A stretch of 64,000 bases of DNA from a virus. This document shows positions 49,662 through 59,556 of the stretch, piece after piece. The stretch is taken from IMG/VR virus record IMGVR_UViG_3300026519_000239, positions 1 through 64,000 of that record; one strand, written 5' to 3'. The notes under the pieces were generated by a model, which had not been told where the DNA came from, did not search any database, and saw nothing but the letters and a program-made list of their open reading frames with translations. Position 1 is the first letter of the stretch; the number at the start of each line of letters is the position of its first letter. Position numbers and translations under genes: made by a program.

Positions 49662-51764
49662 TTAAGTGATGAAACGGTGCATAGAGTTAATCATATGAGA
49701 TGGAACCGATGACTTGTGTGCGTTTAGGCTACGTTCTTGTGAGCAAGGAACAGTTACCAAGTCAGGTCTATTCCATCTGTCCATGAAGAAACTCATGGCC
49801 ATATCCCGGAATGTATTCAGATAGCCGGGAGGCATCATGAAAGCATCATGGATGTCTATGAGTGCAGGGATGGTTACACCTATCCGTCGAGCCAAAGCAC
49901 CATCCAGTGAATGGATAGTATTGGCTCCAGCAGCTAGATTCCTTCCATCTGGGTTGCCTACAGTAATCACCATAGACACCCCACTCTCCTCATCAATAAC
50001 TACCTCCTTTTTCTGTGTACATACATAGAACGCCTTATATGTGCCACTGGTATAATCTGAGTGAATGTCAGGCATGCGCACTACACAGTCTTGATCAGTG
50101 AACTCTGCAAGTTTGCATTGGTTCAGATGTGTGTTAACAGCAGGAATTACTTTCTGTATCCCCATTTGCAAAGCCACTGCTGAACTAGCATCCACTCTCT
50201 CATACGCAGAAGTACTTCCATACATGATAGGCATGAGGAGTGTATTCTTGAGGAACTTACGATCATCAGGAGCGTTCCACATACCGGTCTCTTTGGCTGC
50301 TTCTAGTACTTCCATGTACACATCTACTGGAGGTGTATACAGTTCGTCATACCAGTTATCTGTTAGTAGATTGCTAACAGAAGCTGTTTGTACACATCCG
50401 TAGATAGCACCAATCCACTGAGTAGCATTGGAAGTGAAGTCAACAGTGATAAGCCTTCTGCTTACTTCATAAAGATTTCCTTTTCTAAGCAAGTCAATGG
50501 TCTTCTCAGCATACTTCCATGCATAGTACTCATTGTCTTTCTCAGGTGTTTCTACTGTTTTGCGGTTGCACACAATATCTAAGCCATATTGAAGCCTGTC
50601 CATGAAAGAAGCTTTCTCTTCCACGAACTTACCTAAGTACCACAACACACTAGGCACTACCTCAGCTCTTTCTGATTCCAGTCCTTGAAACATACAAATT
50701 GCAACATCCTCAGCATCTAGCGTAGGCAGTTGCTTGATAAGCAGTTCATCTGCTGTTCTTGTTATATTTATCTCCTTAATTATCTCAGGAGTTACAAGAC
50801 AGTTTCTTAGATGATGGTATTGCTTAATTGCATTGTAGTTTCTACCGCGGGAATCCAGCTCAGGAATAAACCAAACATCGAAGCCAAGTTCATGATAGGT
50901 GTACATCAAATCACGGCATAGATTGTAGTGATAAATCACTGACTCTCGCGTGGCTTCCTTGATGTAGTTACCATTTTTGTCTTCTGCTGTGGGTTCCCAG
51001 TGCTCAGACAGAATATCTACATCTATATCAAAAGTCTGCTCAGCCAATGAAAACAATATTTGCTTCTTTGGCTTTTCCATATACTTTGGTACAGATTTTG
51101 TATATCCAGTATATCTTCCGTCTTCTTTCAGCTTCGCAAATACAGCGTTGATAATGTTACGACTAGCAATTGCTGAGAGGCTTTTCGGAACACACATAGG
51201 AAGCAAGCCAGTATTGCATTGCTTATCTACGTTAATTGCCTTTGGACAGTGAAGATCATGGATATCTATAATACTGCCCTTTACTGTGAAGAGTTTGGTT
51301 TCTTCTCCTATGCGTTTCAGCATTTGGTACAAAGTATTGCCAGTTTTCTCTACCTCTTCTTCGTACTTCTCACCTGCGTTGAGGGCAGAGATACCATGAT
51401 GACTTAATACCGTATGCAGCAATCCATGGATAAGCGTCTGTACAGCCATAGTCTTTGTAGGCTGCATGCTGAGCTTAACTAAGATGGCTGTATACAGTTT
51501 GCCAACGATGTCTAATGAATGGTTTGGAAATGCTTGCACCAGAATTTCTCTGACTTTTGTGAAAGCTAATTTATAGCCTTCATTGTTGTCATAGAGATCA
51601 GTCAAATATTCTTTAGCAAATTGCTTTCCTATATCGTTGCTATACCATTCAAGTATAAATTCATTTACCTTTATGGCTTTATCTGTGTTTGATAAGTCAT
51701 CTTTATTTATATATCGGATGTAGGCTCCCATAACGGGAGCCAGTATCTGTGGTTTACGTTTCAT
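49662..51764 (-). CDS. T7-like RNA polymerase (N4 RNAP II equivalent), single polypeptide
   Basis: DSRGRNY, motif A VDFTSNATQ, motif B RKFLK...MPIMYGS, ANTIHSLDG and motif C IHDAF, all in one 700-aa ORF. Confidence 0.9.
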   Translation of the reverse strand: MKRKPQILAPVMGAYIRYINKDDLSNTDKAIKVNEFILEWYSNDIGKQFAKEYLTDLYDNNEGYKLAFTKVREILVQAFPNHSLDIVGKLYTAILVKLSMQPTKTMAVQTLIHGLLHTVLSHHGISALNAGEKYEEEVEKTGNTLYQMLKRIGEETKLFTVKGSIIDIHDLHCPKAINVDKQCNTGLLPMCVPKSLSAIASRNIINAVFAKLKEDGRYTGYTKSVPKYMEKPKKQILFSLAEQTFDIDVDILSEHWEPTAEDKNGNYIKEATRESVIYHYNLCRDLMYTYHELGFDVWFIPELDSRGRNYNAIKQYHHLRNCLVTPEIIKEINITRTADELLIKQLPTLDAEDVAICMFQGLESERAEVVPSVLWYLGKFVEEKASFMDRLQYGLDIVCNRKTVETPEKDNEYYAWKYAEKTIDLLRKGNLYEVSRRLITVDFTSNATQWIGAIYGCVQTASVSNLLTDNWYDELYTPPVDVYMEVLEAAKETGMWNAPDDRKFLKNTLLMPIMYGSTSAYERVDASSAVALQMGIQKVIPAVNTHLNQCKLAEFTDQDCVVRMPDIHSDYTSGTYKAFYVCTQKKEVVIDEESGVSMVITVGNPDGRNLAAGANTIHSLDGALARRIGVTIPALIDIHDAFMMPPGYLNTFRDMAMSFFMDRWNRPDLVTVPCSQERSLNAHKSSVPSHMINSMHRFIT

Positions 51765-53641: not shown

Positions 53642-53677
53642 GGCAGTACTGAATACTACCCAAACCAAACACCCCCC
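53642..53677 (-). promoter_or_regulatory. Putative phage promoter element GGGTGTTTGGTT plus 5' hairpin (copy 1)
   Basis: 12-mer identical at four sites, each 48-64 nt upstream of a - strand gene and followed by a GG-initiated hairpin. Confidence 0.65.
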
Positions 53678-55679: not shown

Positions 55680-55716
55680 GGATTAGCTTTCTCTAATCCC
55701 ACAAACCAAACACCCC
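55680..55716 (-). promoter_or_regulatory. Putative phage promoter element plus hairpin (copy 2)
   Basis: AACCAAACACCC at 55704-55715; perfect 7-bp hairpin GGATTAG/CTAATCC. Confidence 0.65.
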
Positions 55717-56359: not shown

Positions 56360-56536
56360 TTATATTGGCTGACCGCACCCAACGCATTCTGGGCCGTCGC
56401 CATCTCTATGGATAGTTCCACAGAATGGACACACCAGCTCTTTTACTGGTGCTATTCTGTCCAGTGTTTTGTTTACCTCTTCTGAGTCAGTATATGTAGC
56501 TGACTCATGGTCAGTTGCTGTGTCTTTGTCCATCAT
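56360..56536 (-). CDS. 58-aa zinc-ribbon protein (not in the ORF track)
   Basis: CPFCG...CVGCG; GAGGT RBS. Confidence 0.65.
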   Translation of the reverse strand: MMDKDTATDHESATYTDSEEVNKTLDRIAPVKELVCPFCGTIHRDGDGPECVGCGQPI

Positions 56537-56551
56537 ATTTAGTTACCTCTC

Positions 56552-56770
56552 TTACATTATAAGTTGGAGTAGGAGCACTGTTTTAACCCCTGCTATAAAA
56601 GCCATCAGCAGCAACAATGCTGTCATTACTGCTTCTAGAGCCATTGTGATCCAATCGCCTTGCTTGAAGTCCCAGTACACTAACTTTTCGAATAAGACTG
56701 CAATCCATACAAATGCTGTTGCAGTAGTAGCTGCAATTATCACTAGTGTGCCTACAATCAATTGTTCCAT
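56552..56770 (-). CDS. Small two-TM membrane protein
   Basis: 72 aa, two hydrophobic helices, GAGG RBS. Confidence 0.6.
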   Translation of the reverse strand: MEQLIVGTLVIIAATTATAFVWIAVLFEKLVYWDFKQGDWITMALEAVMTALLLLMAFIAGVKTVLLLQLIM

Positions 56771-56793: not shown

Positions 56794-56834
56794 TTAAAAA
56801 TAAGGGACTGACATAAGCCAGTCCCTTATTTTTA
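56794..56834. terminator. Bidirectional-type terminator
   Basis: TAAAAATAAGGGACTG...CAGTCCCTTATTTTTA inverted repeat. Confidence 0.8.
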
Positions 56835-56840
56835 TGGAGA

Positions 56841-57287
56841 TTAGAGTCCGTATACGAACCCTATGTGTTTAAACACCGAGGATTTCCGTACTGATCCATC
56901 CTCCTGTACCTCTTCTACGCTTTCTCTTCTTGAGAAAGCATAGACCGGCTGGATTCCATTCCTTAGTAGCTCCTCTTGTAAAGGAGCCATCAGAAATGGA
57001 GCTCCTCCTATCATTACTTGGATCGGTTGTTCTGAGTTTTGATCAAGCAACTTGGCGATGTTAGCTAGTTGCCTTGCACGATGGAGTGGCTCAAGATCGT
57101 ACGGCAGCTCTTCAAAAGTAAGGATGTCTTCCAATGTGCTGGGCATCCTTGTAAGAAAATCCTCTGTGTCTCCTCCTGTCTCCTCTAGATACTCCACGTA
57201 CATCTGGAGTGCTTCATTGTAGTCTACAACTCCTTCTGCACGCTGTTCTTCTGTTGCTTTGTGTTGAGTGAAATTGATGATCATCAT
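56841..57287 (-). CDS. Csx20-like CARF-fold protein, candidate cOA ring nuclease (anti-CRISPR type III)
   Basis: INFTQHKATEEQ N-terminus, VMIGGAPFL, and PVYAFSRRESVEEVQEDGSVRKSSVFKHIGF C-terminus. Confidence 0.7.
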   Translation of the reverse strand: MMIINFTQHKATEEQRAEGVVDYNEALQMYVEYLEETGGDTEDFLTRMPSTLEDILTFEELPYDLEPLHRARQLANIAKLLDQNSEQPIQVMIGGAPFLMAPLQEELLRNGIQPVYAFSRRESVEEVQEDGSVRKSSVFKHIGFVYGL

Positions 57288-57317
57288 AGGTTTACCTCTT
57301 TGTTTTGGTTTAAGTTA

Positions 57318-57346
57318 GGTCTATGGAAGACCCCAACCAAACACCC
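57318..57346 (-). promoter_or_regulatory. Putative phage promoter element plus hairpin (copy 3)
   Basis: AACCAAACACCC at 57335-57346; hairpin GGTCT/AGACC. Confidence 0.65.
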
Positions 57347-57450
57347 TAAGTTAAACTTAGATACAAGTAGCTATAGCAGGGATATAAGTGTAGTTATAAA
57401 TAAGCGGAATAACCTTGTAAAGAGTGTGTGTAGGAGTATTGATAGAAATG

Positions 57451-57980
57451 GTAATGAAATCAATGATATAGGTGAGAATATAGGGAATAGGTACATAGTG
57501 AGGGTAAGTTATTGAAAAATAAGGAGAATTTCTTATGTATGATGGGAAGGAAGTGTAATGAAATCAATGGGATATGGAGTATTCTTAAAGAGATAGTTGA
57601 ATGGGAAATTGTGGAAAAATCGTTAAAAATCAATGACTTACAGAACAAATCAATGACTTACAGAACACGCTATGTCGATATAAGCATACGTATCGACATA
57701 GCATTTTTGCACCTAAAAATAGCCTACATGACAGTGCATTACAGCCTACATGATAGTGCATGTAATGAATTTAATTCTCTTTGTAAATCAGTAACTTAGC
57801 TACTTATGGATTGTGTGGATAACTGAGCCAAAGAGTGTGATTTCAATTTGTTTAAAACTTACATGAGTAAAAATATACGTATGATGGTAAATAAATTATA
57901 TTTTTAATTATAACTAAACCAAAGATAAGGGTTGAGATTGGGGTAAATATAATTTATTTATTAGGATTATTAATCCAATG
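57451..57980. promoter_or_regulatory. Origin-like non-coding element (IHF-consensus sites, direct repeats, DnaA box, AT-rich tract)
   Basis: AATCAATGACTTA at 57628 and 57648, AATCAGTAACTTA at 57786; 12-bp inverted repeat 57669-57702; 19-bp direct repeat at 57721 and 57743; TGTGGATAA at 57814; AT-rich 57840-57975. Confidence 0.5.
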
Positions 57981-58138
57981 GATTGGTGAGTTGGAGGAGT
58001 TGATTTAATTGTTGGTTAATTTAGTGAGAATTTCTCGTGGCTCTATTTAGCTGTGTGAGTGTGAGTGTGATGAGTGTGTGAGAGTGTGTGGTTAAAAAAT
58101 AAGCCCCACTACCGTTAGGTAGCAGGGCAATGAGGCTT

Positions 58139-58537
58139 TTAGAAGAACTTAATGTCTTCGGTCGCCTCAGAGATCCAGTCATCTGGGTTAAACTTAGGTT
58201 TATCCTTCTTCTCTGGAGTCGGCTTCTCTTCAGGGATCTGTCCAGATGCTTTCAGCTCTTGTATCTTGAGCTGTAACTCCTTGGTATTTAGCTGAAGCTT
58301 TTCGATCTCATATTCCTTCTCGAGTTTATACACGGCAGTACGTGCTGCTGCTAGCTTAAGCTTAGACTTAAGCTTTTGTTCCAGTTGGAGTTTCTGCTTT
58401 GAAGCCCTGTACTGGGCCTTCATCTTTTCTCCCTCAAGGGCGGAACTCGTATACAGGCTTAGAATCTCATGGGCCTCAATTGCAGGCTTTACTGCTCTTT
58501 TGATTACAGTCATGGTCTTGTTTACTGCGTCTTTCAT
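58139..58537 (-). CDS. Coiled-coil hypothetical early protein
   Basis: 132 aa; GGAGG RBS; terminator-like stem at ~58094-58128. Confidence 0.75.
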   Translation of the reverse strand: MKDAVNKTMTVIKRAVKPAIEAHEILSLYTSSALEGEKMKAQYRASKQKLQLEQKLKSKLKLAAARTAVYKLEKEYEIEKLQLNTKELQLKIQELKASGQIPEEKPTPEKKDKPKFNPDDWISEATEDIKFF

Positions 58538-58580: not shown

Positions 58581-58613
58581 GGTAGCCCCATGCTACCTAG
58601 AACCAAACACCCC
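58581..58613 (-). promoter_or_regulatory. Putative phage promoter element plus hairpin (copy 4)
   Basis: AACCAAACACCC at 58601-58612; perfect hairpin GGTAGC/GCTACC. Confidence 0.65.
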
Positions 58614-58656
58614 GGGGGGCAGGTCGGATCCAGTCCACGTACAGACACCCCCTAAG

Positions 58657-58966
58657 CCACTGTCTGCTGCTAATATATTTTTGATGTCAGAAGTTTTTTC
58701 ATACCACTGTCTATTAGTAGTATATTTTTGATGTCAAAAGTTTTTCTCCCTCACACCTAAGCTACCACTCTCTGCTAATGGTAGATTTTTTACCTCAAAA
58801 CTTTTTCTTAGATATTTCTAAGCCACTCTCTGCTGATGATATATTTTTTGTCCCAGAACTTTTTTTCATACTACCATCTGTTGCTAATAGATTTTTTATG
58901 CTGAAACTTTTTCCCTATACTGCTCTCTATTAGTAGTATGTTTTTTATCTCAAAAGTCTTCCTATA
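58657..58966. repeat. Array of six degenerate ~42-bp direct repeats
   Basis: Units start at 58657, 58704, 58765, 58823, 58871 and 58920; consensus about CCACTSTCTRYTRRTRRTAKATTTTTKAYSTCARAASTTTTT. Confidence 0.85.
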
Positions 58967-59556
58967 CTGATCTCTATAATTAACAGATTGCTTATCTTAA
59001 TAATCCTCTCAATCCAGTACTATTCCTCTTAAGTTGGTTTCTATCCTTAATCTTCTTAGTTGTTGTATCTCTTAATCTAAACCAATGGTTTAGCTATAGC
59101 TAACTTGTACTCTAATCCAATGGATCTCTACAGCTAGTTTGTATTTGGTTTCTGGTTTTACTGTTTAGCTAAATTTAGGTTTTATCTATATATACAAGAT
59201 AGGTATATGTAGTAGTTAAATTCCGTTTCCTAAAAATTTAGCTAGTATAAATTTATATCTGAAAGTTTTTCTAAGCCAATAGTTGATAGATTGAGTATAG
59301 AGTTAGTTGAATGATGTTGGTTTAGTTTGGATTGAACCAATAGAAGAGAAGAGATAGATAGAGATAGCTGAATGAGAGTGAGATTTAGATTCTGGATTAG
59401 ATATAGGGAGGGAGATATAGAGATGCAGAATGGTAGTAGAAAACTGAGGGTAGTAAATAGTAGAGATACGCTACGCTGAACCAAAGATGATAGTGGAGAC
59501 TATGGTCTATCTTTATTGGTTCAGCGAAGCGCAATTAGAGATGAGAGTGTATTGGT

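Follow-up and report, generated by a model that had tools for sequence, protein, structure and literature searches.

A stand-alone gene between a repeated 12-mer and a strong terminator

The window analyzed here is a 64,000-nucleotide stretch that forms part of a 74,335-bp IMG/VR virus record. On its minus strand, positions 56841..57287 hold an ORF that starts with ATG-ATG and encodes a 148-aa protein, which profile matches and alignments place in the Csx20/MJ1673 family. A ribosome-binding site, AAGAGGT (57294..57300, minus strand), can be read 6-7 nt 5' of the ATG. A promoter-like 12-mer, GGGTGTTTGGTT (57335..57346, minus strand), lies 48 nt 5' of the ATG and is followed directly by a hairpin, GGGUCU-uccau-AGACCU (57317..57333, minus strand; RNA fold -7.9 kcal/mol). 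At the other end, an intrinsic terminator (56795..56834, minus strand) starts 7 nt past the stop codon. It consists of an 18-bp hairpin with an A-tract before it and a U-tract after it (dG -26.5 kcal/mol, z -10.3), and 0 of 200 shuffled sequences were as good. A 3.5-kb region around the gene gave no blastn match among 50,697 phage records.

The 74,335-bp genome has just four copies of GGGTGTTTGGTT, all of them exact and with no one-mismatch variants besides, against a chance expectation of ~0.008 exact copies in the 128 kb searched. A genome scan placed all four on the gene strand (minus; 53663-53674, 55704-55715, 57335-57346, and 58601-58612), each 48-64 nt 5' of a start codon. Each copy is followed by a hairpin whose sequence differs but whose pairing is kept, and then by an AACTTAA-like stretch; the hairpins after the other three copies fold at -9.4 to -10.3 kcal/mol. 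We infer that GGGTGTTTGGTT is a promoter element, and the four sites together are a candidate promoter family of the early region. The hairpin could be either a stem-loop at the 5' end of the mRNA or a part of the promoter. In phage N4, the early promoter read by the virion RNA polymerase is a hairpin on the template strand, with 5-7 bp in the stem and 3 nt in the loop. The stems after the four 12-mer copies are 5-9 bp long and vary in sequence, and their loops are 3-6 nt, in contrast to the 3-nt loop of the classical N4 promoter. Directly next to the 12-mer, at 57360-57346, is a separate hairpin whose stem has 6 bp and whose loop has 3 nt.

The first-pass annotation of this DNA had described a stand-alone transcription unit, and the 12-mer, hairpin, ribosome-binding site, ORF, and 18-bp terminator found in the sequence bear this out. 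It had also credited the gene with its own promoter element and terminator. The terminator, with its 18-bp hairpin and U-tract, is present and so is the repeated 12-mer, for which the promoter function is our interpretation. Other promoter candidates were discarded. A hairpin-plus-AGCTA pattern, modeled after the fact on the hairpin at 57360-57346, gave 2 matches and was equaled in 11 of 100 shuffles, hence it was not significant, and the motif TCTTTGGNTYAG is enriched genome-wide yet has no tie to gene starts. A sigma-70 promoter scan found 9 sites versus 10.6 expected from shuffles. An Rfam scan of the 55-60 kb region returned nothing credible.

Upstream of the unit, an AT-rich and repeat-rich non-coding spacer of ~750 nt (57347..58102, minus strand; defined from the ORF list and repeats) extends to the terminator of the upstream gene (58128-58103, minus strand; terminator scan). 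On the gene strand, the spacer holds no ORF of more than 62 aa. Its repeats comprise three copies of GTAATGAAATCAAT, a 20-nt unit repeated perfectly in tandem (57627-57666), a pair of 19-nt repeats (57721-57761), a palindrome of 13 bp (57669-57702), and an inverted repeat that is perfect over 16 nt (57888/57945); the spacer looks regulatory or origin-like. Further upstream, seven tandem units of ~47 nt (58651-59007) precede a 132-aa ORF (58139-58537) and its 12-mer. Downstream, two tiny genes (56360-56770, minus strand), the first beginning 30 nt past the terminator of the Csx20-like gene, encode a hydrophobic protein of 72 aa and a zinc-ribbon protein of 58 aa with a CxxC...CxxC pattern, and end at a terminator at 56350-56325. 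PADLOC models gave no match to either gene. Since the two genes lie 30 nt past the terminator and have no 12-mer of their own, some read-through into them is possible.

The carrier is an N4-like phage

The full DNA was found, among sequencing runs, only in one hydrothermal vent metagenome, its probable source, and the runs listed with the DNA include no RNA run. The genome encodes a 3,653-aa ORF, a T7-type RNA polymerase II (49662-51764, minus strand; PHROG RNA polymerase match over residues 379-628), and a DNA polymerase that shares ~36% identity with its counterparts in N4 and other Schitoviridae. Judged by these three genes, the phage is N4-like. It is uncultured and far from any cultured phage. 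RNA polymerase II of N4 is made of two subunits, whereas here it is a single 700-aa ORF.

Minus-strand genes form a block from 65,089 to 33,980, in which the Csx20-like gene precedes the RNA polymerase II gene by 5 kb on the same strand. If N4 is taken as the model, this block would be the early region, and a position upstream of RNA polymerase II suggests that the Csx20-like gene is expressed early. N4-like phages inject an RNA polymerase, which would express such a gene within the first minutes. The phage genome contains no cas genes, and no type III CRISPR-cas locus adjoins the gene.

The phage protein belongs to a divergent branch of the Csx20/MJ1673 family

The motifs that the first-pass annotation had listed are all present in the ORF: HKATEEQ (H9 to Q15), MIGGAPFL (residues 92-99), and VYAFSRRESVEEVQEDGSVRKSSVFKHIGF (residues 115-144). 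They coincide with invariant columns of the family, far from chance. An alignment of 22 homologous sequences has 26 invariant columns, among them N5, T7, Q8, and H9, then Q15, in the strand-1 loop, G94, G95, A96, and P97 in the strand-4 loop, and Y116, F118, S119, R121, E122, D130, G131, K135, F139, H141, and G143 in the C-terminal beta-hairpin. The alignment and the structural model also delimit an insertion of ~21-25 aa at residues ~24-47 (codons at 57147..57218, minus strand), which is modeled as two helices and is rare in the family. It faces a gap in 21 of the 22 aligned sequences, and a comparable insertion that shares a DFLTR motif is found in one relative (P0125) and a few others.

We compared the protein with profiles of known families. 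The NCBIfam model for Csx20 (NF040559) matched residues 57-144 over profile positions 36-121 of 124 with E 8.4e-13, so an HMM comparison with Csx20, proposed when the gene was first annotated, gave a match. The score of 48.8 bits does not reach the equivalog cut-off of 70 bits; true Csx20 proteins score 88-157 bits, and the M. jannaschii genome, used as a control, exceeds the cut-off. Three PADLOC Csx20 models matched (E 8.7e-12, 6.2e-11, and 9.8e-11), as did the PADLOC model of a CARF-HEPN-Csx20 fusion (E 1.3e-6). PF27247.1 ("MJ1673") is precomputed on an identical database protein and on all 120 homologues among the matches listed, and it is also present on a true Csx20. Our local copies of Pfam and PHROGs gave no match for the protein; that Pfam copy predates PF27247.

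For direct comparison we used three true Csx20 proteins that score 88, 138, and 157 bits on NF040559. When a profile of the phage protein's clade was aligned to them with hhalign, the match had 96.2% probability (E 2.1e-9) over 117 columns and ran nearly end to end (residues 5-148 versus 3-125), whereas a single-sequence run reached only the last 39 residues. H9, Q15, G95, A96, R121, F139, and H141 are invariant in nine clade members and the three true Csx20 proteins. E122 and K135 are conserved inside the clade only, and K135 is not conserved in two of the three true Csx20 proteins. A word-indexed search with a true Csx20 as the query returned only the query itself. Because the profile matches, PF27247, the hhalign result, and the common invariant residues agree, we regard the phage protein, on its sequence, as a real though divergent member of the Csx20/MJ1673 family and not an NCBI equivalog. 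The Csx20 likeness noted at first sight is thus real homology. It had also been assigned to a family other than AcrIII-1, and this holds: a six-frame search of the whole 74,335-bp genome with PF08960 (DUF1874) at E <= 0.01 found no match.

The family has known links to type III CRISPR. MJ_1673, of ~130 aa, has been linked to the type III-A systems found in Methanococcales (PMC3973734), and Csx20 was predicted to be a ring nuclease on the basis of His, Arg, and acidic residues (PMC8284326). In vitro, cellular Csx20, a stand-alone ring nuclease encoded in type III CRISPR loci, degrades cyclic tetra-adenylate (cA4), a type III alarm signal, without metal, and also cyclic tri-adenylate (cA3) at high enzyme concentration (Hoikkala et al. 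2025, PMC12409355).

A predicted homodimer brings the conserved loops together

The AlphaFold (AF2) model of the protein (pLDDT 94.2, pTM 0.83) is a sheet flanked by helices, with the insertion forming two extra helices at residues 23-37 and 41-47. In an exhaustive structural comparison, the top rows were Cap5 SAVED (Z 5.9), Cam1 (5.2), Can2 (4.8), and Crn1 (4.5), and a viral SAVED ring nuclease (9R8S) scored Z 4.6. All structural matches stay below Z 6, where common folds can also score. Foldseek found nothing in the PDB at E <= 0.001, with Cam1 as the best match (E 0.05). A PDB sequence search with the protein returned noise only, and so no family member appears to have a solved structure. 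A protein without a CARF-like fold would have spoken against the original annotation. The best matches are indeed SAVED and CARF proteins, but only at Z 4.5-5.9, and the model is therefore weakly suggestive of a CARF/SAVED-like fold.

We also predicted the homodimer, which scored 0.78 compared to 0.00 for the best of three controls. The 0.78 mark was attained by 20 of 30 solved one-chain pairs and by 1 of 23 solved single chains, counts that are rough given the custom alignment. Dimer runs agreed in at least 97% of contacts, and the partner chain had a pLDDT of at least 91. The predicted interface includes residues 93-98, 100-105, 116-120, and 142-148, and so takes in the GGAP loop, the helix that follows it, and the C-terminal strands. 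Such an interface would be expected of a pocket that sits on the two-fold axis and is lined by the conserved residues. The model thus predicts a symmetric homodimer, and backs binding without demonstrating it. In some family members (P0122 and P0123), 261-268 aa long, the full domain is duplicated in tandem, and a single chain would thus form a pseudo-dimer.

The clade is found chiefly in phages, prophages, and plasmids

The family is large: one search gave 697 matches, and an exhaustive search gave 1,621 clusters at 50% identity. Atlas clusters are 60-82% viral, and we confirmed clade relatives on 170 IMG/VR contigs. Relatives in cultured phages are found in Rhodothermus phage RM378 (35% identity, full length), Pasteurella phage Pm86 (51% over the C-terminal 57 residues), and Fusobacterium phage JD-Fnp4; the RM378 copy sits near the genome end amid small unnamed genes. 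Conjugative or mobilizable plasmids of Azotobacter, Aromatoleum, and Caminibacter carry copies, and more distant ones are enterobacterial. A further 66 loci lie in prokaryotic genomes, mostly MAGs, including one within a Mu-like prophage, in its early region. The main carriers of the clade are phages, prophages, and plasmids, and not CRISPR loci.

The genes around 40 viral homologues are diverse small uncharacterized genes with scattered recombination, replication, and methylase genes, with no recurrent partner family and no link to CBASS. CRISPR-like arrays were found near only 2 of 146 related loci, one of which is the Mu-like prophage, and among 75 large ORFs neighboring homologues, a tally of families with at least two members contained no Cas10 family. 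Sampled phage and IMG/VR flanks share no other gene with the N4-like phage at high identity (best 36%), which argues that the gene moves horizontally. A family tree (135 columns) was poorly resolved, and we therefore claim no donor or direction of transfer; on it, Patescibacteria copies are interspersed with viral ones (12 rows, 9 label changes).

Carrier genomes differ in their type III content. A Cas10-type match was present in 7 of 50 clade-carrying genomes, a count made without a matched control and so not an enrichment figure, and in none of ~25 small Patescibacteria or DPANN carrier genomes. At eight Patescibacteria MAG loci (L093, L106, L112, L114, L118, and L132-L134), the homologue lies 2-4 kb from RNase Y. 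At the four annotated Patescibacteria loci (L093, L114, L118, and L134), a TrmB-type regulator adjoins the homologue, and ClpP is present at two. No Cas10-type match was found in the genomes of these loci that we searched (L093-L134). This conserved rny-clpP-trmB chromosomal setting hints at a family role beyond type III CRISPR.

True Csx20 proteins have a different setting. Two of the three used for comparison lie in type III contexts, one with Cmr4 (211.7 bits) 3.4 kb upstream within its contig and the other with a Cas10-like ORF 3 kb downstream. Among 10 host genomes searched for Csx20, two, a Thermoanaerobacter and a Campylobacteraceae MAG, have a true Csx20 with type III genes plus a separate clade copy. 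In a background sample of 602 genomes, one held a true Csx20, and a search of 301 cyanobacterial genomes gave none. The Campylobacteraceae MAG (G610) has a type III-B locus, with Cmr4 and the 138-bit true Csx20 on one contig (C64) and Cas10/Cmr2 on another (C110). A third contig (C76) holds the Mu-like prophage (CI repressor, MuA, MuB-like, and Gam) with the clade homologue in its early region, and a 14-repeat CRISPR-like array lies 9 kb away.

A proposed ring nuclease acting against type III CRISPR immunity

We think it fairly probable that the protein is a phage Csx20-type cyclic oligoadenylate (cOA) ring nuclease that acts as an anti-type III CRISPR. This reading draws on homology, the retained histidines and arginine, the predicted dimer, carriage on mobile elements, and the early position. 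Its substrate, chemistry, and counter-defense role are what we infer from the published assays on cellular Csx20. Soon after infection, a short and essentially monocistronic mRNA would probably be made from the gene's own copy of the promoter-like 12-mer to the strong terminator. The protein would dimerize symmetrically, and this would bring its conserved loops together at the two-fold axis, as CARF-type domains do. A pocket may then be formed by the T7-Q8-H9 loop, the G94-G95-A96-P97 loop, and S119, R121, E122, K135, and H141 of the C-terminal hairpin. This pocket would bind cA4, and possibly also cA3, made by the Cas10 of whichever host the phage infects, and the ring would be cut in a metal-free reaction into linear A2>P products. 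Once the cA4 ring is cut, CARF and SAVED effectors would never be switched on, making the protein an enzymatic anti-type III CRISPR. The pocket may differ from that of true Csx20 proteins, given the IGGAP loop in place of GD(F/Q)(G/T)AT and the lack of conservation of K135 in two of three. Our literature search found no assays on a viral Csx20.

Relatives of this gene have been reported in phages. Homologues of csx20 were found in 4 of 28,114 phage genomes (PMC12409355), and an acr-type csx20-aca14 operon has been described in Pasteurella multocida, with a proposed anti-CRISPR role (PMC13551039). Phage Csx20 homologues and the anti-CRISPR idea are therefore already known (PMC12409355, PMC13551039), and our phage gene shares with them both the family and the counter-defense idea. 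Unlike the csx20-aca14 operon, no Aca-type regulator adjoins the phage gene, which has its own repeated 12-mer and terminator instead. What is particular here is the N4-like carrier, the four-fold promoter-like element, the helical insertion, and a large mobile-element clade distinct from CRISPR-linked Csx20.

Comparison with other systems helps to place the protein. It resembles Csx20 (NF040559/PF27247) in Pfam family, length class, and predicted dimer, and perhaps in a Rossmann-like CARF-related fold. It differs in having IGGAP after strand 4 where Csx20 has GD(F/Q)(G/T)AT, NLTQH at strand 1 where Csx20 has (F/M)(S/N)H, and an extra helical insertion of 21-25 aa, and in being phage-encoded without cas genes nearby. 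Like AcrIII-1/Crn2 (DUF1874, PF08960), which occurs on mobile elements and in CRISPR loci, it is a small, presumably dimeric protein with a proposed role in degrading cA4 against type III systems, but it belongs to an unrelated family. It has in common with Crn1 (Sso2081, PDB 7YGH), Cam1, Can2, Csm6, and Cap5 the conserved loops after strands 1 and 4; its similarity to Crn1 and the CARF/SAVED sensors is nevertheless weak (Z < 6), and it is much smaller than most CARF effectors. Crn4b and a viral SAVED ring nuclease (PDB 9R8S) are recently described ring nucleases on phages and plasmids. With these, the phage protein would share a functional class, as a CRISPR-linked family also found on mobile elements, though folds and families differ.

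To our knowledge, few mechanisms against type III CRISPR have been described, and among viral ring nucleases only AcrIII-1 is well studied. If the phage protein is a ring nuclease, a second, unrelated family of such enzymes would be widespread in phages and plasmids, and this would show how often viruses target the signal and not the Cas complex. The 1,621 clusters stand against only four published cases in cultured phages. The phage copy is a clean test case, being small, confidently modeled, equipped with obvious candidate catalytic residues, and carried by an N4-like phage. On sequence grounds, it is a credible candidate for a counter-defense gene.

Other ligands and other roles

A bolder reading is one that we consider rather unlikely. 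The clade, recognizable by NLTQH, IGGAP, and YAFSxRE, might be a separate branch, far more abundant and mostly viral, that differs from Csx20 in ligand preference or breadth. The conserved chromosomal copies in Cas10-less Patescibacteria would then imply that the family degrades, in addition, a signal unrelated to type III CRISPR, and the copy in the N4-like phage, with its helical lid, would target a defense signal other than cA4.

It is unlikely, and a little more so, that the phage enzyme itself degrades cA3 or another cyclic oligonucleotide in place of cA4, and thereby counters CBASS, cA3-dependent type III effectors, or other signaling defense. Cleavage of cA3 by cellular Csx20 at high enzyme concentration is in keeping with this, as are the strand-4 loop and strand-1 motif that set the clade apart from true Csx20, the two-helix insertion that adjoins the N-terminal motif, and the 43 of 50 clade-carrying genomes that gave no Cas10 match. 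However, the only assayed relatives prefer cA4, two host genomes pair the clade with cA4-type Csx20/type III loci, and the viral neighborhoods have no CBASS link.

The protein might instead bind cyclic oligoadenylate tightly without turning it over. Phage Tad and Acb2 proteins are known sponges of this kind. Csx15, a related small protein, has almost no cleavage activity and was suggested to be a sponge (PMC12409355), and a predicted dimer with a conserved pocket would suit such a role. We give it only a small chance, as the phage protein keeps both histidines and the arginine that never vary in catalytically active Csx20 relatives, and catalysis takes far less protein than stoichiometric binding, in keeping with one small early gene. 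A non-defense role for the phage copy in nucleotide or RNA metabolism, such as processing of RNA or nucleotide 2',3'-cyclic phosphates or another housekeeping task, is equally improbable: Patescibacteria homologues do have RNase Y, ClpP, and a TrmB-type regulator as neighbors, in genomes with no detectable Cas10, but their scatter among viral copies on the tree speaks against long vertical descent as a housekeeping gene, the founding members of the family are type III-associated, and phage copies lie amid variable small early genes and not in metabolic modules.

Beside the ring nuclease that we favor for the phage, one cellular Csx20 has a setting of its own. In a Bacteroidota genome (locus L164; G320, contig C55), the 88-bit true Csx20 ends an operon of three unannotated proteins (490, 311, and 217 aa). 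A search of this genome for Cas10 gave no match. The operon adjoins BREX genes (PglZ and BrxL) and a gene for a Lon-like 390-aa protein, and the locus is possibly a non-CRISPR signaling defense that uses Csx20.
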